Source: an uncultured Methanosarcinales archaeon | GTDB taxonomy: Archaea; Nanobdellota; Nanobdellia; Woesearchaeales; JACPBV01 | Length of the DNA stretch: 64,000 nucleotides | NCBI GenBank assembly: GCA_964577685.1 | Contig: CAZNZT010000001.1 | Location: 47,978-111,977 of the forward strand | Reading direction: 5' to 3' | Part shown: piece after piece, positions 21,425 through 64,000 of the stretch | Layout: each line of letters opens with the position of its first letter | Position numbering within the stretch: position 1 is the stretch's first letter | Position numbers and translations under genes: made by a program | The notes under the pieces: generated by a model | What the model was told of the DNA's origin: nothing | Database searches by the model: none | What the model saw: only the letters and a program-made list of their open reading frames with translations

Positions 21425-21436
21425 TGAGGTGTTAAA

Positions 21437-22039: not shown

Positions 22040-22041
22040 AA

Positions 22042-22551
22042 ATGGCTACCTTTTTAGATATAACAGCTTTAGAGCATTTTTCTAGTCTTTTTGTTTTTAT
22101 ATTTGTTTGGTTAGTTATTTTCGCAATTCTCTCCTATACAAAAATCTTAGGTGAGAATGTAGGTATTCAAATAGTTATTGGACTGATAATAGCTATTCTT
22201 ACTTTGTTTTCCCCTCTTGCTACAAAGATAATAGAAAATATCGCACCTTGGATAGCAGTTGTCTTTGTCTTTGCAATATTTGCTATAATTGCCGCAAAAA
22301 TGTTTGGTGTGAGTGAGGCAGAAGAGTTGGGTTCTTTAAAATTGATAACATTAATAGTGGTAATGCTTATTATTGTTGTTGGTGTATTAAGCTACATAAG
22401 AGGAGAAATATCTGTGCCTGAAGAAGAAGGAGATATAGATTACAGCAAACCGAGCATTATATTATTTCATCCTAAGGTGATGGGTGCTTTGTTTATTCTA
22501 ATCGTAGCTATATTTGCTATTGTACTTATGGCTGGAAAGCAGTATGTTTAA
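22042..22551 (+). CDS. Membrane protein, paralog 3 of a tandem triplet
   Basis: 169 aa, 'LFVFIFVWLVIFAILSYTKILG'. Starts 3 nt after the paralog 2 stop. Confidence 0.45.
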   Translation: MATFLDITALEHFSSLFVFIFVWLVIFAILSYTKILGENVGIQIVIGLIIAILTLFSPLATKIIENIAPWIAVVFVFAIFAIIAAKMFGVSEAEELGSLKLITLIVVMLIIVVGVLSYIRGEISVPEEEGDIDYSKPSIILFHPKVMGALFILIVAIFAIVLMAGKQYV

Positions 22552-22553
22552 GT

Positions 22554-23177
22554 TCACTTTTTCTTTGTCTTTTGATTAGACTTTATCTTTTGGTCAGACA
22601 TCCTTTGTAGTTTATTGACAGAATCCGTTAAAGAAGGTAGAATCTTAGAAAAAACCTGTTCCATTGCCTTTATCTCTGTCCCAACATTAGTAAGGTGCTC
22701 GTCATATTCCGATATCTTCCCAAGTACGCCTTTATGTAAAGAGTCAAAGTTTGATTTTAGATTGTTTATTTGTTCTTGAATTTTGGTTATTTCAGTAGCA
22801 ACTTGTTCCTTCCATTCAAGAAGTTTATCAATTTCCTTTTTTGCCTCATTCCATTTTTCCTCTACTATTGCCTCTGTCACCTCTTGAATCTCTTCTCTTC
22901 CTACTCCTGTCCCTGGTTGCTGTTGAGGTGGGTACTCTGACGGAACTTCCTGTTCTACTGCTATATTTGCCTGTGGCGGATATTGGAATTGAGGTTGTGG
23001 CTGCTGAGGAAATGGTTGGTACGGCTGTTCTGGAGGATAATCCTGATAATTACCTGGCGGGGTTCCAGAAGTCGGTGGAGGGGTCCCAGAACCAGCAGGA
23101 GGATAATCAAATGACGGGGGTGGTGGCTCTTGAGGAGTATCTGTTGTTTTCTTTTTGCCAAACCCCAAAAAGGCCAT
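22554..23177 (-). CDS. Pro/Gln-rich N-terminal low-complexity plus C-terminal coiled-coil protein
   Basis: 207 aa. 'PPPPSFDYPPAGSGTPPPTSGTPPGNYQDYPPEQPYQPFPQQPQPQFQYPPQ' is followed by the heptad coiled coil 'EKWNEAKKEIDKLLEWKEQVATEITKIQEQINNLK'. The encoding DNA is locally GC-rich. Confidence 0.5.
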   Translation of the reverse strand: MAFLGFGKKKTTDTPQEPPPPSFDYPPAGSGTPPPTSGTPPGNYQDYPPEQPYQPFPQQPQPQFQYPPQANIAVEQEVPSEYPPQQQPGTGVGREEIQEVTEAIVEEKWNEAKKEIDKLLEWKEQVATEITKIQEQINNLKSNFDSLHKGVLGKISEYDEHLTNVGTEIKAMEQVFSKILPSLTDSVNKLQRMSDQKIKSNQKTKKK

Positions 23178-23241
23178 TCTAGCACCTCTTTTTTATATTC
23201 TTACTTTTATATTTTTAATAATCCCCTTTATATAAATATTT

Positions 23242-23676
23242 CTATTTATCTTTTTCTAGTTTTGCTCCTATTGTTTCTTGGATTACTTCTTGAAGCTCAT
23301 TATGCGTAACAAAATTTAAGGGCTGCCACAATTCAATGTATCTCTGTAAGGTTTTAACATCTTCTTTTTTTGCGAATGAGCCAAGCTCCTTTATTATTAA
23401 TATTATCTTATCCTTGAGTTCTTCTACATCTCTTTTCAATTCGCTTATATCTGATAAGATGGTTTTTATTTCTGTACTCAGAGTTTTATTCTTTCTTATC
23501 ATGTTTTCCTCTGTTATTTTTGTTGCTGTTCGTAAATTTGTATATCTCTCTTCTAGTATCCTTATCCTATCTATTAGACTATTTAATCGTTCTGAAAAAT
23601 CAGAACTCCCTACACCGGGTTTTTTGTTTTTTGATATTAATTTTTTTTGTGGAGGTTTAATTGAAAATTGAACCAT
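23242..23676 (-). CDS. Coiled-coil protein, unknown function
   Basis: 144 aa with heptad repeats ('LIDRIRILEERYTNLRTATK', 'ISELKRDVEELKDKIILIIKEL'). Confidence 0.4.
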   Translation of the reverse strand: MVQFSIKPPQKKLISKNKKPGVGSSDFSERLNSLIDRIRILEERYTNLRTATKITEENMIRKNKTLSTEIKTILSDISELKRDVEELKDKIILIIKELGSFAKKEDVKTLQRYIELWQPLNFVTHNELQEVIQETIGAKLEKDK

Positions 23677-23732
23677 ACAGATATTGAAAAAAGATGTTAA
23701 TATAAAGTTATGTTAGTATTCCCTAGTAGTCT

Positions 23733-24047
23733 TTATCTCAGACGCTGACCACAAAAGTAACAGAAATTCTCATTCCCTCTTAAGGGTGTCCTACACCTAG
23801 GACAATAGCCCAAATGGTTCTTAACGTTTTGGGGTTTATTACCAATATATCCTAGCTCACCTTTAGTTTCTTTTTTTCTATTTATAAACCAGATTAATAT
23901 TTTTGCTATCCCTATCACTAAAAAAAGATAACCAACGAGAACAAAAAACCTTAATCTTCCAGAACCAATTTTGTTTTCTACGTAGTGTGTATAGAATAAA
24001 ACAACAATACCAACTGTCAAGTAAAAAGCTCCATGTATCTTAACCAT
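23733..24047 (-). CDS. Membrane protein with C-terminal zinc ribbon
   Basis: 104 aa, two TM helices, then 'GYCPRCRTPLRGNENFCYFCGQRL'. Confidence 0.45.
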   Translation of the reverse strand: MVKIHGAFYLTVGIVVLFYTHYVENKIGSGRLRFFVLVGYLFLVIGIAKILIWFINRKKETKGELGYIGNKPQNVKNHLGYCPRCRTPLRGNENFCYFCGQRLR

Positions 24048-29653: not shown

Positions 29654-30196
29654 ATGACAAAAATAACAGAAAAAAAAGCAAAGAAGATTCTTGAAAGGTA
29701 TGCTCCAAACAATGAGACATACAAAAAGGTTCTAAGACACTCTGAAGAGGTTAAAGGGGTTGCTATTAAGATAGCAAAAAATATCAAGGGTATTGACATT
29801 AATTTTATAAGAACAGCAGCTATCCTCCATGATATAGGAAGGTTTAGATGTCCTCCAAATTCCAGAGAGAGTATAAAGCATGGTATAGAGGGGGCTAAGA
29901 TTTTAAGAAAAGAGGGGCTTAACAAACATGCTTTAGTAGCTGAAAGGCACCTTGGTGCTGGAATTACTAAAGAGGATATAATCAAACAAAAACTAGATTT
30001 GCCTCTTAAAGACTATGTACCAATAAGCAATGAAGAAAAGATTATATGCCACGCTGATAATCTAGTTTTTGGTGATAAAGAAGTGAATTTCAAGAGAGTG
30101 ATTGCAAGATACAAAAAAGAATTAGGAAAAAAATATGTTAGAAGGTTAAAAAGACTTAAAGATGAGATTGAAAAGATGGAATATAGGAATAAATAA
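29654..30196 (+). CDS. HD-domain phosphohydrolase
   Basis: 180 aa, 'VLRHSEEV...AAILHDIGR...ICHADNL' (H..HD...D pattern). Confidence 0.6.
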   Translation: MTKITEKKAKKILERYAPNNETYKKVLRHSEEVKGVAIKIAKNIKGIDINFIRTAAILHDIGRFRCPPNSRESIKHGIEGAKILRKEGLNKHALVAERHLGAGITKEDIIKQKLDLPLKDYVPISNEEKIICHADNLVFGDKEVNFKRVIARYKKELGKKYVRRLKRLKDEIEKMEYRNK

Positions 30197-30818
30197 AGAC
30201 AAAAGACTTCTGAATTTTAGAACAATACAGAGAGACATAGCTGAGAAGATAAGTTTGGAAGATAAATTCAAAAAGATAAGAAAGGTTGTAGGATTTGACT
30301 TGGCATTCAGTAAAGACAATGTTATCTGTGCTGCTATTGTAGTAGATTATAAAAGCCTAAAGGTACTTGAGAAAAGATATGTTATATGTAAAGAAACAAT
30401 TGGTTATATACCAACATTCCTGACATTTAGAGAAGGACCTCCGATACTAGAGGTATATAAAAGATTAGAGAATAAGCCAGACATACTTTTGTTTGATGGG
30501 AATGGAATCTTACATCCATTAAGGGTAGGAATAGCTTCTCATATAGGGGTTGTACTAAAAAAGCCCTCTATAGGTGTAGCTAAGTCGTTGCTTTGTGGGG
30601 AATTAAAGGGTGATTATATTTATATGGACAATGAGAAGGTAGGATATAGATTAAAAAATAAGAGATTCAAGCCAATCTATATATCTCCTGGGCATAGGAT
30701 TAGTCTAGAAAGTTCTGTAAGGATAGCTAGAAAGCTTATTAGGAATCACAGATTGCCTGAGCCATTAATCCTAGCACATAGATATGCAAATGAAACAAAA
30801 AATAGGTGTGATGGATGA
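30162..30818 (+). CDS. nfi: Endonuclease V (inosine-specific)
   Basis: 218 aa, 'VVGFDLAFSKD...YIPTFLTFREGPPILEVYKRLENKPDILLFDGNGILHPLRVGIASHIGVVL' (conserved Endo V catalytic D/E/D/H/K blocks). Overlaps the HD gene by 35 nt. Confidence 0.8.
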   Translation: MRLKRWNIGINKDKRLLNFRTIQRDIAEKISLEDKFKKIRKVVGFDLAFSKDNVICAAIVVDYKSLKVLEKRYVICKETIGYIPTFLTFREGPPILEVYKRLENKPDILLFDGNGILHPLRVGIASHIGVVLKKPSIGVAKSLLCGELKGDYIYMDNEKVGYRLKNKRFKPIYISPGHRISLESSVRIARKLIRNHRLPEPLILAHRYANETKNRCDG

Positions 30819-34503: not shown

Positions 34504-35541
34504 TTAATATGTTTTTATAATCTTTATTAGCCTTTTTAAGTCTATATCGCTTCTAATTGAAACTGGGTCAAAGTGAGTACACGATGCTTTGTGGTTTATT
34601 TTTTTTATTTTTTCTATTATTGTAGAAAGTTTTGGTATTTTTAATTTATTTCTTTTACAGATTTTGTGGATATTATAGAATCCTATTACATCTATTTTAG
34701 ATTCTTCTTTTATTAAGTTCAAAAATTTTTTATTTTCTTCAATCTTATTTTTTTCTAACATCTTACCTACCAATTCTTTATCCCATAAATGCCCTTTCCA
34801 CAATGGTCCAGCTTTTTTGTACATTCCATGTTGTTTCATTATTAAATCCGTTTTCTCCTTACTTTTTTCGCACCTAAAAAAGACTCTCATATAGTGGTCT
34901 TTGAAATATGAAAACATAGGAATTAACGCTTTGCCGTATTGAGAGCCTATTAGTTGTATTTTCCTTATTAATATTCTAAGCCCAATCTCATGCATTAGTT
35001 CGTTCCTCAAAGGAATAGCCCAATATTTCCTTAGGCATGCTTTTGGATAGGATCCAGCAAGTGCTGAGGTGTCTGTCGCTGTAACAGCCAATATTCCATT
35101 TCTTGATATCCTCTTTAGTGAAGAGTCAAGATATGGAGATGGATTGCCGAAGGGGTCTATGTCTATGTAATCAAACCCCTTTGATTTCAAAAGAAATAGA
35201 TTTGCATCTTCGTTATTTATGGAATGTTTCTTTATTTTTAATTTATTAAGTTTAAAGTTTCGCTTTATAATATTTATTGCTTTCTTTTTATAATCATTGA
35301 CTAGAATTTTATCAATTTTATTTTTTTCTAATTCTTTTAGAAACCTTATTGCTCTAATTCCAGTTCCAGCTAGAGGTAATGCTATTCTTAGTTTTTTCTT
35401 TTCAATTGAGTTTAATAGTAGAATTGAGATATCCCTATTGAATTTCATAACTGAGTTATAAAAAACATCCATCTTCTTTGAAATCTTATTTGTCTTAGGA
35501 ACATATATTAGGGCTTTACCTTCACTAATAATTTTGTACAT
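34504..35541 (-). CDS. trm1: tRNA (guanine26-N2)-dimethyltransferase Trm1
   Basis: 345 aa, 'EGKALIYVPK...DVFYNSVMKFNRDISILLL...ALPLAGTGIRAIRFLKE'. Confidence 0.75.
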   Translation of the reverse strand: MYKIISEGKALIYVPKTNKISKKMDVFYNSVMKFNRDISILLLNSIEKKKLRIALPLAGTGIRAIRFLKELEKNKIDKILVNDYKKKAINIIKRNFKLNKLKIKKHSINNEDANLFLLKSKGFDYIDIDPFGNPSPYLDSSLKRISRNGILAVTATDTSALAGSYPKACLRKYWAIPLRNELMHEIGLRILIRKIQLIGSQYGKALIPMFSYFKDHYMRVFFRCEKSKEKTDLIMKQHGMYKKAGPLWKGHLWDKELVGKMLEKNKIEENKKFLNLIKEESKIDVIGFYNIHKICKRNKLKIPKLSTIIEKIKKINHKASCTHFDPVSIRSDIDLKRLIKIIKTY

Positions 35542-36063: not shown

Positions 36064-39000
36064 ATGGAAGGGTGTAATTTGAAGTCAAGGATTATTTCTA
36101 TTCTTATTTCTATGTTTTTATTGATTTTTGTTTCAAATGTTTTGGCTCAATCGAATATTTTTGATTTCTATGGGTATGTGAAAGACGCTAATGGAAACTA
36201 TGTAAGTGGAGCAAATGTTACATTAAGAGAAGAGCTTATGGGCCCTGGAGGGACGCCATTAATATTTTCCACTTTATCAGATGCTAATGGCTTTTTTAAT
36301 ATTTCAAGTGTAAATGGCAGTACACTATATTTGCTTTCAATAGTTAAGTATTCTAATGGAGTTGCACAGCTTGTTAATAAACCACTTCCCCCCCTTCCAT
36401 CAGATATGTATGAGTTTCAATTGATTAATCAAACATTTTATTTAAAAGATGCTGCTACAATAAACATAACAATGTATAACGAAAGTGGGGATGATGTAAG
36501 CTTTAATGGATTTGTCCTAGACACAAAATATAATTATCCAATAGCGAAATTTGAGGATGAGAATAATCCAGTAATTAGAAAAGAGGTTGTTATCCCTGCT
36601 GGGAGGTTTAACTATTCTGTTGTTGTCTGGAAATCTGGTTATGCTCCTCCAAGGTCATTCAATGCTATTGCATACAATACAAGTAGAGGAGATATAGTAA
36701 ATGTAAGAGAAAATATAACCACAAATATGTTTTATCTGACTGGTTATTTAAAATGGCCTAATGGAAGCAATGTCACAAATGTTAATTTTACAGATGTTGC
36801 TTCTTATTTTCCAATTAGTAATTTTTTACCCCTAGATGGAGAAATAAAGGGATTCCAAAAGTATGTTGGAAGCAAAGGTGGTTATGCATGGTATAATATT
36901 TCTGTACCAGGGCCAAACCTTGATATCTTCGTTATGGCATTCGCTAATGATTCAGAATATTATATGGGTACTGCAAGAGTAACCATAACTGGTAATAAAG
37001 AAGAAAATATAACAATATATCCGTTAGCAGGTAGTTATGATATAGCAACTAGTACAAGTGTAGTGAATGTAAATACTAGTAAGACTACAATTAATGTTTT
37101 CTATGATAATGGAACACAAAATGTAAGTGCTGGGGAGACCTTCTTTGATATTCTAGTGAATTATAATGGAACACAGATTAAATTCACAGCAAAAACAAAT
37201 CTTAGTGGTTCAGCTAAGATTCCATTAAGGAATGATACAGGTGCAACAATAGAGATATTCAATGATAGGTTTCCACCAAGAAAGTTTACTTATAGTGGAG
37301 CTGAGCTTGAATCAGATATTAATATTATACTGAAGGGATTTGATAGAATGGAGGATGTAGAAGGAAACATAATTCAAGATATAAAGTCAGAATTTTTTGT
37401 TTCAAACTCAAGTTGTGATGTTCCGAATCCACCTTCTGATTGTTTGGTATTTGAAATAAGTAATGCTTCAAATCCAAGAGAGGGAGTAAAACTCTTATTG
37501 TTGCCTGGGGATGTATCAGTAAGATTAACCCAACTTTCAACAAATATTGTTGTACATTATAAGAATACAGACCTAATAGCTTCTGGCCCACCAGACTTTG
37601 AACCAAGCACTAGGGCTAATAATACTGGTTCTGGAGCATCTTTGAGAGATATTTGGAGATTTGGAAGTTTAGGCCCTGAAATTTATGAAAGCCTTCTTGT
37701 TGGTGTCCCGTATAATAGTTCAAGGATTGATGAAACTTATGCACCATTACCAAGTATATTAATAGGTAATTTATATGATGTACAAAACAATTGGGTACCA
37801 ATATGGAATTCAACAGACGACCCAAATGCCTCAAATGTCCCATCCGCTTACAGTGATTTTGATAGCAGATGGTTTAATGCTAGCTATGGTGGAATGCCAT
37901 GTACTAATGACTTGGATGTTTTCAATTCACTAAGTCAGGGTTGTTATGTAGACAAAACAAATGACATGATATGGTTAAAGATACCCCATTTCTCTGGACT
38001 TGGAATAACTGTGCAGGCATATGCTAACTTAGGTAACATTACATCAGATAGGGCTTCTTATTCTTGCTATCCAAGCTGCTCTGCTTATATTAACTTGACT
38101 ATGAACAACTCAGACCTTGCAGGGGTGCAGAATATCTCTGTTAACAATACAGCAACAGTTACTGGGATAACTTACAAGATAGAATATAAGAACCTCTCAA
38201 ACGGAGAGTGGGTCTACTTAGGGACAGCAAACGACAATAATAGCTGGATATACGATTATGATTTAGTTTTATATAATAGCTCAAATGTAGATAATACAAC
38301 ACATCAGTTTAGAATCAATATAACACTTCCTAGTGCACTATCAACAAAATGGAATTTTAGTTTAGTAATTAATGGTAGCATATATACCCTTGATCCATGG
38401 TTAGATAGTATAAACCTAACAAGTCCAGCAGATGGTGCTTCTGTTGCTTCAGGTAGTAACAATTTTGTATTTACATTGTTTTCTGACAGCTATCCAACAC
38501 AAAATTGTACACTTTATGTTGATGGCAGTGCTGTTGCATCAAATGCTTCAACGGTTAATGGTTCAGCAACTACACTCACAGCCAGTGTAACAAGTTCTGG
38601 TAGTTGGTATGTGAGTTGCAATGAAACAGGAAACTCCGAAGTAAGAACATTTATAGTTGATACAACTGGGCCAAGCATAACCTCTCTAAATTATCCAGGG
38701 AATAATCTAAAAGTAGGTAGTAGTTCTATAAACTTCAACTGGACAGCTACTGATGATATAGATACAAGCTTTGAGTGTAATTTAACTCTAGATGGGTTAG
38801 TCAATGCAAGCAGCATAACTGTAAGTAATGGGACCCCAGCAAACTATACAGTAAATAATATTAATGACGGGACACATAACTGGAGTGTAATTTGCGAGGA
38901 TGGTGTGGGTAACACAGGAAGTTCGCAAACTTATACCTTCTATATAGACACAACAGCACCTACTGTAACTATGAACCAGCCAACGGATGGTATGAATACA

Positions 39001-41214
39001 AGTAGCAGGATTATTAATGTAACCATAGTAGACTCAATCGCAGGAATAGATAATGAGTCTATAATGGTTGATACATATATCTGGAATGGTTCGGCGTTTA
39101 TTAATCAAACGAGATACTTATTCCCTAATAATGTAAGTTGCACAAGCACAGCAATGAATAGTACAAGCACGACATGTACATTTAATGCCTCCAAATTACC
39201 TGATACTGCAAATAGTAGCATAAATATTAGCGTGTTTGTAAATGACTCTCTTGACAATCAAAAGGTATCATCAATAGTCTTTAACCTAGATACTGTAGTG
39301 CCAGTTATGAATTCTATTAGTTTATCTGATAGCTATATAAGTTCTGGACAAGCAATTACAGTTACTGTTAATAGTACAGATACCCCTGGTACAGGTATTA
39401 GTAGTGTAACTCTAACATACTCTGTTGATAGTGTCAATGATACTACTCTCACAAAGGGAACAGGGGATTTATGGTTGGATTCAATCCTCGTTACAGAATC
39501 AAGTGATGGAAGCTACAATATTAGTGCAACAAGTGTAGATTATGCAGGAAATAGCAATGCAATCTCTGCTATAATCAGGATAGACAATACAGCACCTACA
39601 ATATCTGGAGCCTACGCCGATAATAGCTTATTGAGTAATTCTCCGACAATTACTGATGCTGATGGAAATGTAACAATAAACTGGACAATTACAGATGTAA
39701 ACCTTTCGTCTACTAATTTGTCAATAGACTCAGGTGTTATAACCAACTCTTCAACTTCAGCTGTAAATTCGTTTACTACAAGCTTGTCTGCGGGAGAACA
39801 TAATGCCACTATAAGTGCTATTGATGAGGCAGGAAATAGTGTTACAACAACATATACATTCTATATGAATTCACAGGAGAATACCAGTGAAATACTAAGT
39901 AAAATACAAAACGCAATAGGCTCGGATACAGCATTAAGTTTATCTCTAAAAGAAAGTGATGGGACTGACTTATCAAGTAATTTAACATACCTAAATAAAA
40001 CATTAGTACTAGAGATACTCTTAAATGGAACAAATGGACAGAAGGCATGGGGTACAATAAGAGAATTCAGTGGTCTATATGCTAAATGGAATAACAGCGA
40101 TAAAATAAGAATAGAAAAGGATAGTTCATCAAGTATAGGAACAAGGATAACACAAAGAGCAGGAACAACTTTAGACAAGTTTATATTGTTTAGGAATGCA
40201 TCTTATTTCCTTGGTAGTAGCAGATTTTCCCAAGGTGCATCAATTATATTTAATCAGAGTTTACCATCTGGCTATGATGTATTGTATATAGAAGATGATG
40301 ATGGTGAAACAATCTATAAACTAAGTAGATGTACTACAGTCCCTACAACAATAACAACCGATAATATGTGCTATGTGAACACATCAAATAATGTAACACT
40401 GTATATACCTCATTTCTCTGGTGGGGGACTAGCGAATGACACAACAGCACCAATTATTAATATAACAGACCCAGTGAACAATACTATAAAGAACAACAGT
40501 TACTTTACACTTACATTTGATGTTTGGGAGGCAAATCCAAAAACAAACAATCAATTTTGTAGGTATAATCTTACAAACAGTACAAACAAGGAGATAGAAG
40601 TAGGTTATCTTACAACACCTACACCAACTGGAACAAAGTATACATTCACTAAGGCTATAAGTGGTCTAAAAAACGATACATACAATATAACTATAATTTG
40701 TGCTGACTTAAATAACCAAAGTAGAACAGTAGTTCATAATTTCACGGTCGCAGATTCAATAGCTCCAAGGATAACTTCCATAAGTACATCATCAAGTGGA
40801 ACAACAGAGGTAACAGTAACCTTATCTGTTACAACAGATGAAGCAGCAACATGTAGGTATAGCTCGGCTGATGTAGCATATTCTTCAATGAGTTTAATGT
40901 CAAGCACTGGAGGGACTTCCCATTCTTATAGTAATAAATTTTATTTAGATAGTTCAGGCAGGTATTATGTGAGATGCATGGATGAAATGGGAAATGCCAT
41001 GACAAGTTCAAACTCTACCTCATATAGCATATACATAACAGAAGAAACTACAACCAGTTCAGGCGGAGGTGGGGGAGGAATTGGATATAGGCTAGTAAAG
41101 AAAAAAACAACCGCCTTTGAGTTAATTGACATTATAAGAGAGTTCTATGAAGGGACTTCAAAACTTAGTGCTTTTGATATAATTGATAAGATAAGAGAAT
41201 TTTATGGAGGTTAA
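36064..41214 (+). CDS. Giant secreted surface (S-layer/adhesin-like) glycoprotein candidate with no TM anchor
   Basis: 1716 aa. Signal 'MEGCNLKSRIISILISMFLLIFVSNVLAQ'. Dozens of N-x-S/T sequons. Repeated Ig-like segments ('DTTAPTVTM', 'DNTAPTISG', 'DTTGPSITS', 'DSIAPRITS'). Ends with a Gly6 run followed by the tandem 'AFELIDIIREFYEG'/'AFDIIDKIREFYGG' repeat. Confidence 0.7.
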   Translation: MEGCNLKSRIISILISMFLLIFVSNVLAQSNIFDFYGYVKDANGNYVSGANVTLREELMGPGGTPLIFSTLSDANGFFNISSVNGSTLYLLSIVKYSNGVAQLVNKPLPPLPSDMYEFQLINQTFYLKDAATINITMYNESGDDVSFNGFVLDTKYNYPIAKFEDENNPVIRKEVVIPAGRFNYSVVVWKSGYAPPRSFNAIAYNTSRGDIVNVRENITTNMFYLTGYLKWPNGSNVTNVNFTDVASYFPISNFLPLDGEIKGFQKYVGSKGGYAWYNISVPGPNLDIFVMAFANDSEYYMGTARVTITGNKEENITIYPLAGSYDIATSTSVVNVNTSKTTINVFYDNGTQNVSAGETFFDILVNYNGTQIKFTAKTNLSGSAKIPLRNDTGATIEIFNDRFPPRKFTYSGAELESDINIILKGFDRMEDVEGNIIQDIKSEFFVSNSSCDVPNPPSDCLVFEISNASNPREGVKLLLLPGDVSVRLTQLSTNIVVHYKNTDLIASGPPDFEPSTRANNTGSGASLRDIWRFGSLGPEIYESLLVGVPYNSSRIDETYAPLPSILIGNLYDVQNNWVPIWNSTDDPNASNVPSAYSDFDSRWFNASYGGMPCTNDLDVFNSLSQGCYVDKTNDMIWLKIPHFSGLGITVQAYANLGNITSDRASYSCYPSCSAYINLTMNNSDLAGVQNISVNNTATVTGITYKIEYKNLSNGEWVYLGTANDNNSWIYDYDLVLYNSSNVDNTTHQFRINITLPSALSTKWNFSLVINGSIYTLDPWLDSINLTSPADGASVASGSNNFVFTLFSDSYPTQNCTLYVDGSAVASNASTVNGSATTLTASVTSSGSWYVSCNETGNSEVRTFIVDTTGPSITSLNYPGNNLKVGSSSINFNWTATDDIDTSFECNLTLDGLVNASSITVSNGTPANYTVNNINDGTHNWSVICEDGVGNTGSSQTYTFYIDTTAPTVTMNQPTDGMNTSSRIINVTIVDSIAGIDNESIMVDTYIWNGSAFINQTRYLFPNNVSCTSTAMNSTSTTCTFNASKLPDTANSSINISVFVNDSLDNQKVSSIVFNLDTVVPVMNSISLSDSYISSGQAITVTVNSTDTPGTGISSVTLTYSVDSVNDTTLTKGTGDLWLDSILVTESSDGSYNISATSVDYAGNSNAISAIIRIDNTAPTISGAYADNSLLSNSPTITDADGNVTINWTITDVNLSSTNLSIDSGVITNSSTSAVNSFTTSLSAGEHNATISAIDEAGNSVTTTYTFYMNSQENTSEILSKIQNAIGSDTALSLSLKESDGTDLSSNLTYLNKTLVLEILLNGTNGQKAWGTIREFSGLYAKWNNSDKIRIEKDSSSSIGTRITQRAGTTLDKFILFRNASYFLGSSRFSQGASIIFNQSLPSGYDVLYIEDDDGETIYKLSRCTTVPTTITTDNMCYVNTSNNVTLYIPHFSGGGLANDTTAPIINITDPVNNTIKNNSYFTLTFDVWEANPKTNNQFCRYNLTNSTNKEIEVGYLTTPTPTGTKYTFTKAISGLKNDTYNITIICADLNNQSRTVVHNFTVADSIAPRITSISTSSSGTTEVTVTLSVTTDEAATCRYSSADVAYSSMSLMSSTGGTSHSYSNKFYLDSSGRYYVRCMDEMGNAMTSSNSTSYSIYITEETTTSSGGGGGGIGYRLVKKKTTAFELIDIIREFYEGTSKLSAFDIIDKIREFYGG

Positions 41215-48475: not shown

Positions 48476-50326
48476 ATGATAGTCAAGCCAAAGGGAAGAT
48501 ACCTTATAGAGATATCTCAAGAGGTAATGAATCCTATCGGTGGAGTGTACACTGTCATAAGGTCTAAAGTTAAAGAGATGGTTAGATACTATGGTAAAAA
48601 CTACTTTTTGATAGGTCCTTGTTCCTCATTGTATCCAGTAGAATTTAAGGAAGAAAAGCCACCTAGAGATATCAAGGCTGTTTTTGATGGGTTATCAAGA
48701 CTAGGGATTATATGTTATTATGGGAGATGGATTGTTGAAGGTAGACCACAGGTGTTTCTGGTTGATTCTTCCAAACGAATAAATGAGTTAAATGAAATAA
48801 AAGACAATTTAACAAAAAAATATAATATTGACTTTAGATTATCAAATAATGAGAAAACAAACAAAGAAATAGACGAGCTTATTGTTTGGGGAGATTCAAC
48901 AACAATCTTAATTGAAAAATTAATACAATTGAATAGATTCAAAAATAAGATAGGTGTAATCCACCTTCATAATTCAGGTATTCCCGTTCTACCTTTAATT
49001 GCCAAGTTAAGAGACAAAAATGCGAAAGTTGGTTTAGTACTAACCTTACATGCTACCAGCCTTGGGAGAAAGATACTCATGAATAAAGAAAACCTTTACT
49101 CTGAGATAAAAAAAGGACTCAAAAATAAATGTGAGGTAAGTAAAAATAGAGTATCTCTTTACGGACAACCAAGCATATTTCTTCATCAATTAGAAAAACT
49201 AGGTGCTAAAAGAGCTGATGTTGTAACTGCCGTTAGTGGATTAACATCAAAAGAAGCAAGATATATTCTTGGTAGGGAGGCTGATGTTGTAACGCCGAAT
49301 GGTGTTGACCTTAGTTTTTTTCCTACTCTTGAAGATAGAGCCATAATCCACAGTATTTCAAAAGAAAAAATACATAAATTCCTAAATGCTTATTTTTTAC
49401 CATATTATCCAGTTGATGTCAAGGATTCATTATTGTTTTTTAGTTCTGGAAGATATGAATTGATAACAAAGGGATATGAGATTTTTCTTGAGGCGTTAGG
49501 AAAACTCAATAATATTCTAAAGAAAAAAAATAGTAAGAAGAATATATTCGTTTTTTTGTTTATTATGAAAAAAAACAAAGAACCAAAAGAAGAAGTGATA
49601 AGAAATCTTTCTTTATATTGGACTATTGAACAAGAGGTTAATAAGGAGATGCTATATATAAAGAACAAAGTAATGGGGGCGTTAATCCATGGTTATGATT
49701 TAAAATATAAGCATATATTTGATGATGCATTCTTGATAAATACAAAAAAGATTATCCAAAAACTATTCAATAAAAAAAATAAATTACCACCTGTCTGCGC
49801 CCATAGGGGATTGGATAAAGGGGATTCTTTATTGGAGTTGTTGAAAAAAAACAAACTTGAAAACAAAAAGAGTGATAAGGTCAAAGTTATATTTTATCCT
49901 GCTCCGGTTTCTGTATCTGATGGTCTATTGTCAATGGACTATTTTTCCGTTATTTCTGGTATGCAACTTGGGGTATTTCCTTCGCTATATGAACCATGGG
50001 GATATACAGCACTAGAAACTGCCCTGCACGGTGTTATGGGTATTACAACAGACGCAGCAGGATTTGGAAGGTTTATTCAGAAGATAAACAAAGGAAAAAA
50101 AGAAGGAGTGTTTGTATTAAAAGTGCTAAATAGAAAAGAAAAAGATATTACTAATGAATTAGTTAAAATGATGTACAAGATAACAAAGCTTTCTAGAGAG
50201 GAAAGGATAAAAAATAAGATAAAGGCATATGAGCTTGCTACTCTTACAGATTGGAAGAGATTTGCTAAATATTATATAAGGGCGCATAATTTGGCAATTG
50301 AAAGATGCAAAAAAAGATTACATTAA
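48476..50326 (+). CDS. GT3-type glycogen(starch)-synthase-like glycosyltransferase, paralog A
   Basis: 616 aa. 'YLIEISQEVMNPIGGVYTVIRSKVKEM' matches the GT3 'EVANKVGGIYTV' N-terminal signature. 'FPSLYEPWGYTALE' matches the GT-B catalytic E. Confidence 0.6.
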   Translation: MIVKPKGRYLIEISQEVMNPIGGVYTVIRSKVKEMVRYYGKNYFLIGPCSSLYPVEFKEEKPPRDIKAVFDGLSRLGIICYYGRWIVEGRPQVFLVDSSKRINELNEIKDNLTKKYNIDFRLSNNEKTNKEIDELIVWGDSTTILIEKLIQLNRFKNKIGVIHLHNSGIPVLPLIAKLRDKNAKVGLVLTLHATSLGRKILMNKENLYSEIKKGLKNKCEVSKNRVSLYGQPSIFLHQLEKLGAKRADVVTAVSGLTSKEARYILGREADVVTPNGVDLSFFPTLEDRAIIHSISKEKIHKFLNAYFLPYYPVDVKDSLLFFSSGRYELITKGYEIFLEALGKLNNILKKKNSKKNIFVFLFIMKKNKEPKEEVIRNLSLYWTIEQEVNKEMLYIKNKVMGALIHGYDLKYKHIFDDAFLINTKKIIQKLFNKKNKLPPVCAHRGLDKGDSLLELLKKNKLENKKSDKVKVIFYPAPVSVSDGLLSMDYFSVISGMQLGVFPSLYEPWGYTALETALHGVMGITTDAAGFGRFIQKINKGKKEGVFVLKVLNRKEKDITNELVKMMYKITKLSREERIKNKIKAYELATLTDWKRFAKYYIRAHNLAIERCKKRLH

Positions 50327-50382
50327 CCATATTCTTAAATCGGCGAAAGTCTTATAAAGACAAATAAATACATAGCAGATGT

Positions 50383-51381
50383 GTGGAAATGAATGTCGAA
50401 GAATGGTTTAATAAATATAAGTTCAAATGTCAAAGTTTTTCAAATATAAAAAGACTAGTTGAACTTAAAAATAAACAAAAGTTGAAGATAAGTTTGTGTA
50501 TTCCTACCTATAACGAAGAGGCAACTATAGAGAAGATTGTTAGTATTATAAAATCAAAGTTTATAGACAGATATAAACTATTAGATGAGCTTGCAGTTAT
50601 AGATTCTGGCTCTAGTGACAAAACAAGAGAATTAGCAAAAAGGGCTGGTGCTGATGTTTATCTTGCATCTGAAATCCTAAAAAAAGAGGGGCATCACAGA
50701 GGTAAAGGTGAAAACCTATGGAAGGCTCTTTATGTGCTTAGTGGAGATATAATATGTTGGATTGACGGAGACATAAAAAATATACATCCTAGGTTTGTCT
50801 ATGGTTTAGTCGGTCCATTGCTTACACATCCAAAGATTGGATTTGTAAAACCATTCTATAAAAGACCCCTTAAGATAGGAGACAGACTACAACCGCTTGG
50901 GGGAGGCAGAGTAACTGAATTAACGATAAGACCTTTATTCAATCTCTTTTTTCCTAGGCTAAGCGGATTTATACAACCACTTAGTGGGGAAGGAGCCGGG
51001 AGGAGAAGCATTCTTGAAAGAATCCCGTACTTCACTGGCTATGGCGTTGAAACTGGAATGTTGATTGATATAGTAAAAAAATTCGGTTTAAGATCAATAG
51101 CTCAAGTAGATTTACTAACTAGGGTACACAGGAATCAAGAGCTTTCTAGCCTAAGCAATATGGCTTTTGCTATTTTACAGGTTTTTTCAAAGAGGGCAAA
51201 TACACTTGGAAAACTTGTTCTTGTTAGAGGGATAAGAAAGAAATACAGAATAATTGAAAGAAGGAATGGGGAATATATCTTAAAGAAAAAGATTATATCT
51301 GAAGTGCAGAGACCACCGATGATAACTTTAAAACAATACAGAAAAAAATTCAAAAAAGATCCAGTATGGTTATATGTATAG
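50383..51381 (+). CDS. GT2/GT81-like glucosyl- or mannosyl-3-phosphoglycerate synthase candidate
   Basis: 332 aa, 'ISLCIPTYNEEATIEKIV...LAVIDSGSSDKTRELAKRAGADVY...WIDGDI' (DxD). Pairing with an MpgP-like phosphatase supports the call. Confidence 0.5.
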   Translation: MEMNVEEWFNKYKFKCQSFSNIKRLVELKNKQKLKISLCIPTYNEEATIEKIVSIIKSKFIDRYKLLDELAVIDSGSSDKTRELAKRAGADVYLASEILKKEGHHRGKGENLWKALYVLSGDIICWIDGDIKNIHPRFVYGLVGPLLTHPKIGFVKPFYKRPLKIGDRLQPLGGGRVTELTIRPLFNLFFPRLSGFIQPLSGEGAGRRSILERIPYFTGYGVETGMLIDIVKKFGLRSIAQVDLLTRVHRNQELSSLSNMAFAILQVFSKRANTLGKLVLVRGIRKKYRIIERRNGEYILKKKIISEVQRPPMITLKQYRKKFKKDPVWLYV

Positions 51382-52180
51382 AAAATTTGTTATTTTTACA
51401 GATGTAGATGGGACTTTAATAGACTCAGAAAGATATTCCTGGAAGGATGCTAGTCAGGCGGTTTCGTTAATAAGGAAAAGAAAGATTCCTTTAGTGTTAT
51501 GTTCAAGTAAAACAAAGAGAGAAATAGAGGTTCTGAGAAAAGAGATAAAAAATAAAAACCCATTTATAGTAGAGAATGGAAGTGCTATATTTATTCCAAA
51601 AAACTATTTTGATTTTGACTTCGATTATAGTTACAAAAAAGGAAGATATTATGTTATTCAACTGGGAGAGAAGTACAATAGAATAATAAAAGCATTATGG
51701 AAAATAAAGAAACTAAAAGGGATAAAGGTAAGTGGTTTTAAGGATATGTCTGTTAAGGATTTAAGCAAAGATTGTGGGTTGACTATAAAAAAAGCTCGTT
51801 TGGCCAAGAAAAGAGAATTTAGTGAACCTTTTATATTGAAAAGAGGAAATATAGAGGATATAAAAAAAGCTATGAATAAGATGGGATTAACATATATGAA
51901 AGGCAGAAGGTATCATTATATAATGGGGGATTGTGATAAAGGGGAAGCAACAAAAATACTTATAGGCCTTTTTAAAAGAAAGTATAAAAACATTGTTTCT
52001 GTTGCCTTAGGAGATAGTTTTAGTGACCTACCTATGCTAAAAAGCACAGATATAGCGATTATAGTTAAGATGCAAAAAGATAAGTATGATAGTAAATTAC
52101 TGAAATATGGTTTTTTAAAAAAAGCGAAAGGAATAGGTCCAAAGGGATGGAATTCGACTATTCTTGATTTAATTAAATAG
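51374..52180 (+). CDS. Mannosyl/glucosyl-3-phosphoglycerate phosphatase (HAD-IIB, YedP/MpgP family)
   Basis: 268 aa, 'VIFTDVDGTLIDSERYSWKDASQAVSLIRKRKIPLVLCSSKTKREIE' closely matches the MpgP N-terminus. Overlaps the synthase by 8 nt. Confidence 0.6.
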   Translation: MYRKFVIFTDVDGTLIDSERYSWKDASQAVSLIRKRKIPLVLCSSKTKREIEVLRKEIKNKNPFIVENGSAIFIPKNYFDFDFDYSYKKGRYYVIQLGEKYNRIIKALWKIKKLKGIKVSGFKDMSVKDLSKDCGLTIKKARLAKKREFSEPFILKRGNIEDIKKAMNKMGLTYMKGRRYHYIMGDCDKGEATKILIGLFKRKYKNIVSVALGDSFSDLPMLKSTDIAIIVKMQKDKYDSKLLKYGFLKKAKGIGPKGWNSTILDLIK

Positions 52181-52189
52181 CAGGTCATT

Positions 52190-53902
52190 ATGAAAAAAAT
52201 AAAAGCAAAGGCAGATTTCCTGATTGAAGTATCCTATGAGATAGTTAAACAACTCGGTGGAATTCATACTGTTATTAAAACAAAAGCACCTTTTATAAAG
52301 AAATATTATGGAGAAAATTACCTAGTCATTGGGGTTTATACTAAAGAAGGGATTAAAAAAAGATTTAAAGCGAGAAAACCAAGTAAGGAGATAAGAAAAC
52401 TTTTTTTGGAATTAAAAAATGAGAAGATACTAGCGCGCTATGGTACTTGGCTTGTAAAGTCTAATCCAAAGGCGATTCTTATTGATACTAGAAAATTAAG
52501 AAAAGACAAAAAAATAAAGAGTATTATAAAAAAGGAATATGGCATTGGACTTTCTAGTAAGGACTATTATCAAAGAGATTCCTTTCTTTTCGGATATGCT
52601 GCCGGGAGATTGATATATGAATTAAGAAAACTAAATTTTCTTAAGAACAAAAAGATAGTCGTTAATGCTCACGAATATATGAGTGGTCTATGTTTATTAT
52701 ATTTAAGAAAACATAAAGCAAATTTGCCATTGGTTTTTACAACCCATGCTACTGTTCTTGGAAGAACTATTAGTTATAAGGGTGAAAATATACAAAAGAC
52801 GATACTAAGACTAAGCAAAAAAGGAAAACATGAGCATGAAAAAAAAGTTAAGGAATATATAAAAAAGATAAACAAAATAACATATACGAAGCATTTAGTT
52901 GAGAAAGCTTGTTCAAAAAAAGCTGATGTTTTTACTACGGTTAGCGAAACAACATCAAAGGAAGCGGCTTTTTTGTTAGGAAAAAAAGCAGACATCATAA
53001 CACCGAATGGATTAGAAATTATAAAACATCCTAGTATAGATGAACAGCTGGCAATAAACTACAAATCAAAACAAAAAATTTATAGATTCCTTGAAGCATA
53101 TTTTTATCCGTATTATTGGATAAACACAAAAGACTCCTTATTATTTTATACCTCTGGGAGAAACGAGATATATACGAAAGGATATGACCTATTTTTTGAG
53201 GCTTTGAACAAACTAAACTCAAGACTAAAAAGAGAGAAGTATGAAGGAAACATATTTGTATTCTTATTTATAATGATCAGAAAAAAAAGAATAAAGAAAA
53301 TCATTAAGAAAACATTATATGCTTACAGAAAGAACAAAAAGCTATTAAAAAAGATAAAACTTACTAAAAATCCTCCAAACTGTGCATTTGATACTAGAGG
53401 TGATAATACTGTTTTGATGTATCTTAAAAAAAATAAACTTGAAAACAAAAAGAGTGATAAGGTCAAAGTTATATTTTATCCGGCACCTGTGGAGGAGAAT
53501 GATGGATTACTTTCAATGAGTTACAAAGAGATAATCTCTGGAATGGACTTAGGCATTTTCCCGTCTCTATATGAACCATGGGGGTACACCCCGCTTGAAT
53601 CTGCTGCTATGAGTACAATCACCATAACAACAGACATAGCAGGATTTGGAAGGTTCATAAAGGAAAAAAGTGATCAAAGAAAAAGACAGGGAATAATTGT
53701 TTTAAGGACCAAGAGAAAAACTAGATTGGAGATTATTGAAAATTTGGCTAAGACAATGCAGGAAATTGTTAATATGCCAAAAGAAAAAAGGCTAAAAATG
53801 AGGATTGATGCCAATAAACTATCAGGCTTCGCAAATTGGGAGGAGTTCTCTAAGAATTATATAAAAGCCCATAACCTTGCTCTTGAGAAACATAAGAAAT
53901 AA
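52190..53902 (+). CDS. GT3-type glycogen-synthase-like glycosyltransferase, paralog B
   Basis: 570 aa, 'FLIEVSYEIVKQLGGIHTVIKTKAP', 'FPSLYEPWGYTPLE'. Shares an identical 23-aa / 47-nt patch with paralog A. Confidence 0.6.
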   Translation: MKKIKAKADFLIEVSYEIVKQLGGIHTVIKTKAPFIKKYYGENYLVIGVYTKEGIKKRFKARKPSKEIRKLFLELKNEKILARYGTWLVKSNPKAILIDTRKLRKDKKIKSIIKKEYGIGLSSKDYYQRDSFLFGYAAGRLIYELRKLNFLKNKKIVVNAHEYMSGLCLLYLRKHKANLPLVFTTHATVLGRTISYKGENIQKTILRLSKKGKHEHEKKVKEYIKKINKITYTKHLVEKACSKKADVFTTVSETTSKEAAFLLGKKADIITPNGLEIIKHPSIDEQLAINYKSKQKIYRFLEAYFYPYYWINTKDSLLFYTSGRNEIYTKGYDLFFEALNKLNSRLKREKYEGNIFVFLFIMIRKKRIKKIIKKTLYAYRKNKKLLKKIKLTKNPPNCAFDTRGDNTVLMYLKKNKLENKKSDKVKVIFYPAPVEENDGLLSMSYKEIISGMDLGIFPSLYEPWGYTPLESAAMSTITITTDIAGFGRFIKEKSDQRKRQGIIVLRTKRKTRLEIIENLAKTMQEIVNMPKEKRLKMRIDANKLSGFANWEEFSKNYIKAHNLALEKHKK

Positions 53903-53908: not shown

Positions 53909-54679
53909 TTATATTCTCCTACAAAAGGTTAAAAAACCTGTGTGTACTGTCTGTGTAGTAACAGGTCTTACCCTTCTTTCTTCTACTTCCCAATCCCTTT
54001 TAATTATTTCAAGAGTTCTTAGATGAATAAAAGAACTGCTATTATTTACGACTCTAACAAAATCCATTACTTGAGGTATTGTTGGGGAATAAGACACAAG
54101 AAAACCCCCTATTTTAAGTGCTTTCCCCACACTTTTTAGGGCGTTCCAAGGGGAGGGTAGGTCCAAGACAACGAGATCAACATCCTTTTCGTCTATGCCT
54201 TTGAATACATCCTTTTTTTTCACTTTTATGTTTTTTAATCCTAAAAATCTTATATTATCCTTAACAAGTTTATAAAAATCATCTCTTATCTCATAGGTTA
54301 CTACCTCTTTACAGATATTAGCTAGAAAACATGCTAGAGCTCCTGAGCCAGCACCAGCATCAACCACCTTGCTGTTCTTATTAACTCCTGTAAATGCAAT
54401 GATAATGCCTATGTCCTTTAAAGATACAATTTGTGCTCCTCTTTTTATCCTCATATAATCATCAACAAAGCTTGGGGATATAAGGATGAACTCTTTTTTT
54501 ATGTTACTAAGAATTCTAGAACCATCCTTCCTCTTTAAATCGCTTTTTTTTATCACACCATCAGAACAATGATAATCTTTAGAGATATCATTTACATAGT
54601 ATGTCTTTATCTTTGTTGATTTAAACTTATTACTTAATTTCTCTTTATTACTTTCTTTTCTGACTAATATTTTTGGCAT
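53909..54679 (-). CDS. trmI: tRNA (adenine57/58-N1)-methyltransferase TrmI
   Basis: 256 aa, 'GAQIVSLKDIGIIIAFTGVNKNSKVVDAGAGSGALACFLA'. Confidence 0.7.
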   Translation of the reverse strand: MPKILVRKESNKEKLSNKFKSTKIKTYYVNDISKDYHCSDGVIKKSDLKRKDGSRILSNIKKEFILISPSFVDDYMRIKRGAQIVSLKDIGIIIAFTGVNKNSKVVDAGAGSGALACFLANICKEVVTYEIRDDFYKLVKDNIRFLGLKNIKVKKKDVFKGIDEKDVDLVVLDLPSPWNALKSVGKALKIGGFLVSYSPTIPQVMDFVRVVNNSSSFIHLRTLEIIKRDWEVEERRVRPVTTQTVHTGFLTFCRRI

Positions 54680-54693: not shown

Positions 54694-54830
54694 TGGGCCT
54701 AGGAGGATTCGAACCCCCGACCTTAAGCCAATCTAGGTTCTCACCTAAGATTTTCAGCTGACCTCCTATTTAATAGAAGGCTGCCGCTCTTTTTGGCAAA
54801 CCCATTGTGTCCAAACTGAGCTATAGGCCC
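54694..54830 (-). tRNA. Intron-containing tRNA gene (137-nt precursor). Probable tRNA-Arg with anticodon UCU. Three non-exonic inserts are inferred.
   Basis: The minus-strand read is GGGCCTA-TA-GCTC-AGTTTGG[20 nt]A-GAGC-G-GCAGC-CTTCTA[14 nt]A-GCTGA-[35 nt including about 30 extra]-GGGGG-TTCGAAT-CCTCC-TAGGCCC-A. The acceptor stem is a perfect 7 bp and the T-arm is canonical. Exons sum to 73 nt. Confidence 0.6.
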
Positions 54831-54890: not shown

Positions 54891-55034
54891 TTATAAATTT
54901 TGTTGTAGATCCAGATCCTCAACTTTCTCAACCCTCTGTGTGCATTCTTTCTTGAGGTCCCAGTAAACCCAGCAGTTCTTTCCAAATTTCTCCCATTTTA
55001 TACATCCTTTGCAGCACTCTGGAATCTTTGCCAT
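54891..55034 (-). CDS. Small Cys-rich protein (47 aa), absent from the ORF track because of the length cutoff
   Basis: Translated by hand: MAKIPECCKGCIKWEKFGKNCWVYWDLKKECTQRVEKVEDLDLQQNL. Six Cys in a CC..GC / C / C arrangement. Same strand as the top6BA genes and the tRNA. Confidence 0.4.
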   Translation of the reverse strand: MAKIPECCKGCIKWEKFGKNCWVYWDLKKECTQRVEKVEDLDLQQNL

Positions 55035-63642: not shown

Positions 63643-64000
63643 TCATAATTTTATTTTTATCTTGCTGTTTTTTACTAACAAAACAACCCTACTATTTTCT
63701 TTTTCATCTGTTATTATATAGTTAGAATATTTGGCTATTTTCTTTGCAAATTCTTTTACTTCAGTATGGGAAGGCATATTATCTTGTTTAAGTCTTTCCC
63801 TACTATAACCAACCCACATATACGCCTTACACTCAACAAAGCTTGGTGAAGAAACCCTAATTAGTTCTGCATATTCTTTTGGATTTAACATGTTCTTATT
63901 TTTTACTAGTGTTAACCTCATAACGCTCCTTTTGAAATCTTTTAAGAGCATTAATGATTTAAGAATATTTTTCCAATTATCTCTTGATAAAGGTCTACAA
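63643..64000 (-). CDS. C-terminal part of a TYW1/Taw1-like radical SAM tRNA-wyosine enzyme. The gene runs off the window end; the frame is open upstream of the Met at 63951.
   Basis: 'ECKAYMWVGYSRERLKQDNMPSHTEVKEFAKKI' resembles the Taw1 C-terminus. No in-frame stop between 63951 and 64000. Confidence 0.4.
   Translation of the reverse strand, partial: CRPLSRDNWKNILKSLMLLKDFKRSVMRLTLVKNKNMLNPKEYAELIRVSSPSFVECKAYMWVGYSRERLKQDNMPSHTEVKEFAKKIAKYSNYIITDEKENSRVVLLVKNSKIKIKL

Follow-up and report, generated by a model that had tools for sequence, protein, structure and literature searches.

On the minus strand of a 64,000-nt stretch of archaeal contig CAZNZT010000001.1 (the whole stretch is referred to below as the window), positions 54694-54830 hold a gene for tRNA-Arg(UCU) that extends over 137 nt from G1 to discriminator A73 (reverse complement, GGGCCUAUAGCUCAGUUUGGACACAAUGGGUUUGCCAAAAAGAGCGGCAGCCUUCUAUUAAAUAGGAGGUCAGCUGAAAAUCUUAGGUGAGAACCUAGAUUGGCUUAAGGUCGGGGGUUCGAAUCCUCCUAGGCCCA). 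The gene matches the Rfam tRNA family (RF00005) at exactly these coordinates, with 40.1 bits against a gathering score of 29 and with model positions 1-71 of 71 aligned, in agreement with where the first-pass annotation had placed it; no other RNA family was detected by Rfam in the 64-kb window, even when the threshold was relaxed to E < 0.5. The elements that had been read in it can be followed both in the sequence and in the cloverleaf: a perfect 7-bp acceptor stem (GGGCCUA/UAGGCCC), a canonical T-arm (GGGGG-UUCGAAU-CCUCC, one G.U pair included), the D-stem GCUC/GAGC and the anticodon UCU. CCA is not encoded, as TTT directly follows the discriminator. Between these elements lie three inserts, and we consider it very probable that 54694-54830 is a functional tRNA-Arg(UCU) gene with three protein-spliced introns, at 20a/21, 37/38 and 43/44, in a Woesearchaeota-type archaeon. 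One tRNA-Arg(UCU) gene broken by three endonuclease-type introns in a DPANN-like archaeon had already been proposed at first pass, and in this outline the proposal is upheld by the splice motifs, the call made on the spliced product and the syntenic orthologues described below.

Predicted Exons, Introns and Splice Registers

[quoted passage not shown] All sets of up to three non-overlapping BHB-compatible introns were enumerated, and the set whose product was closest to intron-less orthologues was kept. The orthologues come from a sample of 47 tRNA-Arg(UCU) genes, assembled from loci syntenic with the methyltransferase gene TrmI and from one metagenome pattern scan, and are given here by locus handles (L001 and so on). 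Placing the inserts by alignment alone was tried and rejected in favor of enumeration; it left boundaries 1-2 nt off and merged adjacent introns. For the window gene, the enumeration picks introns at 20a/21, 37/38 and 43/44, each with 4/4 central-helix pairs, and a product of 75 nt; the BHB-compatible folds foreseen at the three junctions were thus found. As judged from base pairing, every exon-intron boundary can form a BHB motif, strict or relaxed. When the introns were shuffled, all three core helices occurred in a product-preserving register in 0.025% (2.5e-4) of 20,000 trials, and none of the 20,000 shuffles equalled intron 3 taken together with its outer (4 bp) and inner (5 bp) flanking helices.

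Intron 1 (54791-54808, minus strand; 18 nt, ACAAUGGGUUUGCCAAAA) was placed by the enumeration in the D-loop at 20a/21, in the register UUGG AC|A ... CCAA AA|A with the central helix UUGG/CCAA. Its 5′ bulge AC|A is closed by a 3-bp inner helix, its 3′ site AA|A is in an internal loop that adjoins the D-stem, and the predicted motif is of the relaxed HBh′ type; the helix UUUGG/CCAAA appears in the minimum free energy (MFE) fold of the precursor. The first-pass annotation had given this insert 20 nt (54791-54810), which would leave a mature tRNA of 73 nt with an 8-nt D-loop, AGUUUGGA. Such a product is also accepted by ARAGORN as tRNA-Arg(tct), and an equivalent placement of the 20-nt insert (22|...41|) has a 4-bp helix, TTTG/CAAA. 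However, the 20-nt placement has no flanking helices (h 0, h′ 0) where the 18-nt placement has them (h 1, h′ 3), the introns of L001, L002 and L010 occupy the same 20a/21 register as the 18-nt placement, and seven intron-less orthologues as well as all resolved spliced products are 75 nt long with a 10-nt D-loop, AGYYUGGAYA. We regard the longer insert as very unlikely; the mature tRNA has 75 nt and not 73 because the D-loop intron has 18 nt and not 20, and it would be expected to read ...UUUGGACAGAGC... and not ...UUUGGAGAGC....

Intron 2 (54760-54773, minus strand; 14 nt, TTAAATAGGAGGTC = UUAAAUAGGAGGUC) is the canonical intron at 37/38 and was placed by the enumeration and by ARAGORN -i. 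It has the register CUUC UA|U ... GAGG UC|A, with CUUC/GAGG as the central helix and the anticodon stem as the outer helix, and the enumeration agrees here with the 14-nt insert, and with the pairing of its GAGG to C32-C35, noted at first pass. The 3′ bulge is UC|A and the 5′ site UA|U lies in the terminal loop, a motif that we would assign to the relaxed hBH, or bulge-helix-loop, type.

Intron 3 (54724-54753, minus strand; 30 nt, AAAUCUUAGGUGAGAACCUAGAUUGGCUUA; BHB enumeration) lies at 43/44 in the register AGCU GA|A ... GGCU UA|A, with bulges GA|A and UA|A. The central helix AGCU/GGCU recruits tRNA nt 38-41, the outer helix GGUC/GGUC joins the final 4 nt of intron 2 to the variable loop, and the inner helix comprises 5+4 bp under a GAGA cap; on paper the motif is a full, strict hBHBh′, and the segment folded in isolation forms H, a 3-nt bulge and h′. 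A third insert of about 30 nt, a strong hairpin after the anticodon stem, had been recognized correctly, while its range of 54719-54753 was too wide, as 54719-54723 is the 5-nt variable loop AGGUC and belongs to the exon. Its assignment to the variable region likewise holds as to the side of the molecule, the exact site being after the final nucleotide of the anticodon stem, just before the variable loop.

Four exons on the minus strand remain. Exon 1 (54809-54830, RNA nt 1-22), defined by the enumeration, by colinearity with intron-less orthologues and by the ARAGORN cloverleaf, contains the acceptor 5′ strand GGGCCUA, U8 and A9, the D-stem 5′ strand GCUC and the D-loop AGUUUGGAC up to 20a. 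Exon 2 (54774-54790, RNA nt 41-57; enumeration and ARAGORN cloverleaf) contains A21, the D-stem 3′ strand GAGC, G26, the anticodon-stem 5′ strand GCAGC and the loop CUUCUA with the anticodon UCU and A37. Exon 3 (54754-54759) was defined by enumeration and is a 6-nt segment, AGCUGA, made up of A38 and the anticodon-stem 3′ strand 39-43. Exon 4 (54694-54723, RNA nt 108-137), for which the Rfam alignment, the enumeration and the ARAGORN cloverleaf were used, contains the variable loop AGGUC, the T-arm, the acceptor 3′ strand UAGGCCC and the discriminator A. Joined, the exons of 22, 17, 6 and 30 nt give a 75-nt cloverleaf that is colinear with the intron-less orthologues base for base, with an acceptor stem of 7 bp, a D-stem of 4 bp, an anticodon stem of 4 bp plus G.A and a T-stem of 5 bp. 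The region of the exon-3 junctions in this product (...CUUCUAAGCUGAAGGUC...) is the same as in L013, L014, L055 and L062.

ARAGORN reported no tRNA in the window and so missed the unspliced gene, but called the 75-nt product spliced in silico as tRNA-Arg(tct) with a clean cloverleaf. After removal of the D-loop and 43/44 inserts, ARAGORN -i detected the 14-nt canonical intron unaided. A tRNA-Gly(gcc) with a 54-nt intron, offered by ARAGORN -i for the unspliced gene, was rejected, as it has a 1-bp D-stem, an anticodon that falls inside intron 1 and no orthologue support.

Conservation and Covariation Among Orthologues

In many relatives a tRNA-Arg gene lies directly upstream of TrmI, and this conserved synteny provides the comparison. 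Seven orthologues, each of 75 nt and at the same place between Top6A and TrmI in Woesearchaeota/Nanoarchaeia relatives, have no intron. Others carry one to three inserts, at 19/20 or 20a/21, 28/29 or 29/30, 37/38, and 42/43 or 43/44, and every intermediate combination of introns was found; three introns also occur in L055 and L058 (29/30 + 37/38 + 43/44 or 42/43). Enumeration of the orthologues led to tRNA-Arg products of 75 nt (once 76 nt), except in four genes that it did not cleanly resolve (L008, L060, L064 and L069); the splice registers of L058, L072 and L073 are those from enumeration. Genes were retrieved by the metagenome scan only if they had an insert on the anticodon stem's 3′ side, which inflates how often that site occurs in the sample; among the unbiased syntenic loci, the window, L015 and L084 have such an insert. 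Relatives at 67-70% TrmI identity have no intron, an intron at 28/29 only, at 37/38 only, or at both 37/38 and 43/44. Relatives at equal distance differ in their intron sets, and intron turnover in tRNA-Arg(UCU) therefore appears to be fast.

The helices required for splicing are maintained across this series. D-loop introns at 20a/21, 14-40 nt long, are also present in L001, L002 and L010, where the complementary tetramer co-varies (exon/intron tetramers at this site, TTGG/CCAA, CTGG/CTGG and GCCT/AGGC). At 28/29-29/30, the tetramers are GCGG/CCGC, GCGG/CCGT, AGCG/CGCT, GGCG/CGCT and GGCG/CGCC, perfect in 13 of 13 cases. Most genes with the 37/38 site have GAGG, GAAG or GGAG exactly 2 nt before the 3′ cut, and a GARG/GGAG-type tetramer lies exactly 2 nt ahead of this splice site in 17 orthologues. 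The 43/44 register is common to five genes (window, L062, L055, L067 and L084) and is accompanied by compensatory changes: 93% of cells in the BHB pair, compared with 16-63% when the partners are slid, and four of the five inner-helix pairs show double-sided compensatory changes. In most relatives the insert starts after nt 42, inside the anticodon stem, and in the window after nt 43. The sequence and length (22-33 nt) of this hairpin vary freely, and the bulges 4 bp apart are conserved.

Three side observations came from the same loci. A stretch, CAGTCTT..GTTGGTTTT, is common to the D-loop intron of L010 and the 43/44 intron of L055, from two different genomes; with z = 7.7 in local alignment it ranks first among 1277 comparisons across sites, 5 of which exceeded z = 4, as against 33 of 433 within-site pairs; the likeness hints at intron transposition between sites, as has been proposed for Thermoproteales. 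Two tRNA genes lie just upstream of TrmI in L014 (2833-2983), tRNA-Arg(UCU) and, 3 nt further on, tRNA-Cys(GCA). In L017 (2843-2953), TrmI is preceded by a tRNA-Cys(GCA) that carries a canonical intron of 38 nt.

Alternative Interpretations

Several points weigh against a functional, three-intron gene. Splicing of the precursor is something that we infer from sequence. In the mature anticodon stem, the 27:43 pair is a G.A mismatch. Two of the motifs are relaxed, intron 1 having an outer helix of just 1 bp and intron 2 being essentially without an inner helix, and thermodynamic folding disfavors the intron-2 BHB, the cloverleaf with the BHBs of introns 1 and 2 being about 9 kcal/mol less stable than the MFE fold. 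The 43/44 covariation was assessed in a sample of five sequences only. The 4-bp rule by itself is permissive, with 236 candidate sites in 137 nt, and is therefore not discriminating, which is why flank scoring, product matching and the shuffles were added. Finally, no open reading frame (ORF) in the 64-kb window matched the tRNA_int_endo (EndA) or RtcB families, the search for EndA, a ligase and a second tRNA-Arg(UCU) having covered the window only.

One could ask whether the locus is a decaying pseudogene that has accumulated insertions and stays unprocessed while an intact copy elsewhere does the decoding. ARAGORN does not recognize the gene, its Rfam score of 40 bits is modest, a second copy could lie outside the 64-kb window, and the TATA-box-like element sits farther upstream than in most orthologues: TTTATAA at 54891-54897 (minus strand), the candidate archaeal promoter, is 67 nt upstream of the mature 5′ end, whereas TTTAWAW is found at -32 to -34 in about 40 of the 47 orthologues (and at -59 in L082). 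If this putative promoter is used, its position at -67 implies an unusually long 5′ leader of at least about 35 nt, or else a weaker A/T-rich element lies nearer the gene. However, the exons are intact and the stems perfect; each insert, unlike a random insertion, has a correctly registered BHB at its boundaries; dozens of orthologues have inserts at these sites too, with compensatory changes; and the position upstream of TrmI is conserved. AGA is moreover the dominant Arg codon, accounting for 61% of Arg codons (464 of 762, or 30.7 per 1000 codons) in 47 window ORFs, in which AGA and AGG together make up 96%; its decoder is therefore indispensable, and archaeal genomes usually have one gene per isoacceptor (PMC4307357). 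An indispensable decoder with intact exons would argue against a pseudogene, which we hold to be highly improbable.

An assembly artefact can be set aside. Four contigs, assembled independently of one another (from ENA, from JGI and from two Logan runs; samples ERZ27248458, JGI 3300021468, SRR7051284 and SRR7051285), carry an identical TrmI protein and an identical 137-nt gene with its flanks, and the structure is therefore no product of assembly.

A different reading would retain the third insert as a long variable arm and make the product a class-II-like tRNA of some 105 nt. The insert is indeed a stable 9-bp hairpin capped by GAGA that emerges roughly where long variable arms do. It starts, however, after nt 43 (after nt 42, within the anticodon stem, in most relatives) and has its ends in two 3-nt bulges exactly 4 bp apart, a conserved endonuclease signature; close orthologues without the insert have a normal 5-nt variable loop, and the 105-nt form is accepted as a tRNA by ARAGORN only by invoking an intron. 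A retained arm seems hardly credible on these grounds. A class II tRNA proper, with its arm within 44-48 and Leu, Ser, Tyr or Sec identity, was rejected in view of the anticodon UCU, the start after nt 43, the BHB boundaries and the 5-nt loop of the orthologues.

Least probable of all, to the point of being nearly negligible, is a gene with two inserts only, the first in the D-loop and the second, about 45 nt long, following the anticodon, and with GCUUA (54724-54728) as the anticodon-stem 3′ strand; this is the alignment chosen by the Rfam covariance model, in which 25 D-loop nt and a further 46 nt after the anticodon stay unaligned, but its GCUUA stem has two non-canonical pairs ('vv' flags), no BHB exists for a 57|...102| intron, ARAGORN calls the product an undetermined tRNA with a 2-base anticodon, and the orthologues have ...CUUCUAAGCUGAAGGUC... 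in this region. The misalignment arises because AGCU is palindromic and its intron partner GGCU mimics the exon. Two further candidates were discarded: a group I self-splicing intron, with a core of about 200 nt or more, is incompatible with inserts of 14-30 nt and with the lack of any Rfam family besides tRNA at E < 0.5, and a split or permuted tRNA gene with four exons that are contiguous and colinear within 137 nt.

Precursor Folding and Proposed Processing

The three-intron precursor has an MFE fold of -54.5 kcal/mol (z = -4.2) in which the acceptor, D and T arms are retained along with the intron-1 helix and the intron-3 hairpin. In this fold, intron 2 pairs with the anticodon stem-loop in a perfect 9-bp helix, GCCUUCUAU/AUAGGAGGU (RNA nt 50-58/62-70; 54761-54781, minus strand), which is one register off the BHB of intron 2 and would conceal its 5′ splice site. 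A conformer that combines this helix with the core of intron 3 (H + h′) has -52.2 kcal/mol, and the cloverleaf with the BHBs of introns 1 and 2 has -45.3 kcal/mol. The 9-bp helix could be a folding switch, or simply mark a limit of the energy model.

Since intron 3 recruits tRNA nt 38-41 and the four final nucleotides of intron 2 for its BHB, the BHBs of introns 2 and 3 exclude one another. If the modeled motifs are the ones used, the two cannot coexist and the precursor must refold between cuts. The folds suggest that intron 3 is offered for cleavage first, and intron 2 once the RNA has refolded; we infer that removal of intron 3 before intron 2 would be the most economical order, and the reverse order could also be taken with a broad-specificity enzyme. 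From established archaeal tRNA biology, the precursor would be transcribed from the upstream TATA box, EndA would cleave six sites at the BHB bulges, an RtcB-type ligase would join the exons, RNase P and 3′ processing would trim the ends, and CCA, being unencoded, would be added post-transcriptionally.

We also entertain, as a tentative and rather doubtful possibility, that the canonical intron is a folding partner of the 43/44 intron, through the outer helix and the 9-bp pairing, that an order of 43/44 and then 37/38 is enforced, and that the sites belong to a previously uncatalogued family. The last four nucleotides of the canonical intron, which are GGUC, GGCC or AGCC pairing with GGUC in the five genes, would build the outer helix of the 43/44 BHB; the 9-bp alternative pairing would free the 3′ stem strand for the central helix of intron 3; a programmed conformational switch would enforce 43/44 splicing before 37/38; and the 42/43-43/44 sites, a family widespread in Woesearchaeota tRNA-Arg(UCU), would form their BHB at the anticodon stem's expense.

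The motifs of introns 1 and 2 are relaxed, and the host EndA would therefore have to be of a broad-specificity type. Candidates for such enzymes are (alpha-beta)2, epsilon2 and, in DPANN, the L3-loop alpha4 enzymes (PMC5829648, PMC3239211). By analogy, the host enzyme is most likely the L3-loop alpha4 EndA described for DPANN. The expectation of a heterotetrameric or epsilon2 EndA raised at first pass is probably too narrow, given the alpha4 enzymes with an 'L3' insert in that group.

Host and Genomic Neighborhood

As had been described at first pass, trmI lies downstream and top6BA upstream of the tRNA on the same strand. TrmI, a GCD14-family tRNA m1A methyltransferase (53909-54679, minus strand; Pfam GCD14, 1.3e-23; named tRNA (adenine57-N1/adenine58-N1)-methyltransferase in its JGI homologues), starts 14 nt after the tRNA, and Top6A, Top6B, a KH protein and a RIO kinase lie upstream. 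The window has a G+C content of 32.9% and contains archaeal genes for Topo VI A/B, RIO kinase, PCNA, an aIF5B-type GTPase and L10/L12. All 54 genome loci recovered through TrmI are Woesearchaeota/Nanoarchaeia metagenome-assembled genomes, and by its archaeal genes and these relatives the host appears to be a Woesearchaeota-type archaeon (DPANN, class Nanoarchaeia). The next nearest TrmI is about 70% identical, and the protein database holds no relative between 70% and 100% identity.

Many third-party annotation records titled 'uncultured Methanosarcinales archaeon' (L001, L004-L006, L009, L011, L012, L017, L018 and others) carry a TrmI of Woesearchaeota/Nanoarchaeia type (at most 71% identical) and the syntenic tRNA-Arg; judged by these genes, the titles are probably taxonomic mislabels.

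Other parts of the window drew attention in their own right. Genes for RNA modification and RNA handling include Trm1 (m2,2G; 34504-35541, minus), TrmI (m1A; 53909-54679, minus), an ORF with a wyosine-formation domain (63643-63951, minus), a PUA-domain protein (6139-6594, minus) and endonuclease V (30162-30818, plus). Adjoining a seryl-tRNA synthetase, seven consecutive ORFs of 104-207 amino acids on both strands (20148-24047) have no Pfam match at E < 1e-5. A 1716-amino-acid ORF (36064-41214, plus) has a sub-threshold bacterial Ig-like domain (Big_13) as its sole match and is possibly one of the large surface proteins that are common in DPANN. At 48476-53902 (plus), two paralogous glycogen synthase genes of eukaryote/archaeal type (616 and 570 amino acids) surround a GT2 glycosyltransferase and a HAD phosphatase, a sugar-polymer cluster in a small-genome archaeon.

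Discussion

Archaeal tRNA genes contain one to a maximum of three introns (PMC3239211), and the known non-canonical sites include D-loop 20/21, 29/30 and 45/46 (PMC4090602). The tRNA-Arg(UCU) locus is a further example of an already known kind, as multi-intron archaeal tRNAs and disrupted DPANN tRNAs have both been published. In the literature examined, outside which the Sugahara 2007/2008 surveys lie, we found no record of the window gene or of the 42/43-43/44 intron site, and we do not claim the site as new.

The closest parallels come from three groups. The three-intron genes of Thermoproteales, like the window gene, combine one canonical intron with two non-canonical BHB or relaxed introns and are missed by standard finders. 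In Pyrobaculum islandicum tRNA-Pro(UGG), as relayed by a later paper, the introns lie at 25/26, 37/38 and 56/57 (Sugahara et al. 2007, via PMC4090602); compared with that account, the window host belongs to DPANN and is not a crenarchaeote, and the non-canonical sites are 20a/21 and 43/44 instead of 25/26 and 56/57. The window gene further differs from the Thermoproteales genes in that its intron-3 BHB is predicted to be made from the anticodon-stem 3′ strand and the end of intron 2, leaving two motifs that are mutually exclusive. Methanopyrus kandleri pre-tRNA-Glu(UUC) has a relaxed HBh′ D-loop intron together with a canonical intron; cleavage is faster at the canonical intron, and removal of the D-loop intron depends on a broad-specificity enzyme (PMC5829648). 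The window gene likewise joins a relaxed D-loop intron to a canonical one at 37/38, although it has a third intron at 43/44, another tRNA identity and another lineage.

In DPANN genomes, one of Woesearchaeota included, tRNA genes have been reported to be heavily disrupted and partly undetected, and this disruption has been linked to alpha4-type EndAs with an 'L3' insert (Kaneta et al. 2018, PMC5829648). Disrupted tRNAs of ARMAN-2 and other DPANN are processed by epsilon2 or L3-loop alpha4 EndA (PMC3239211, PMC5829648). As in the window gene, these are tRNAs of ultrasmall archaea interrupted at non-canonical sites by strict and relaxed BHB introns; the published ARMAN-2 examples, however, are at 53/54 and 59/60 in the T-loop, whereas the window sites are 20a/21, 37/38 and 43/44.

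ARAGORN with intron search mislabels several of the orthologues (L013, L011, L031, L007, L006 and L008), the calls being tRNA-Pyl(cta), tRNA-Stop(tta), tRNA-Asn(att) and tRNA-His(atg). In DPANN annotations, wrong calls of this kind could pass for recoding or suppressor tRNAs. With the gene missed altogether, automated annotation would list no decoder for AGA, the Arg codon that the organism uses most, and genes like this one probably explain some of the incomplete DPANN tRNA sets reported in PMC5829648. One orthologous gene in conserved synteny, with 0-3 introns at four hot spots in about 47 genomes, provides a natural series for the study of intron gain, loss and movement, and the overlap of the BHBs of introns 2 and 3 offers a concrete case in which refolding from one endonuclease cut to the next could be tested.

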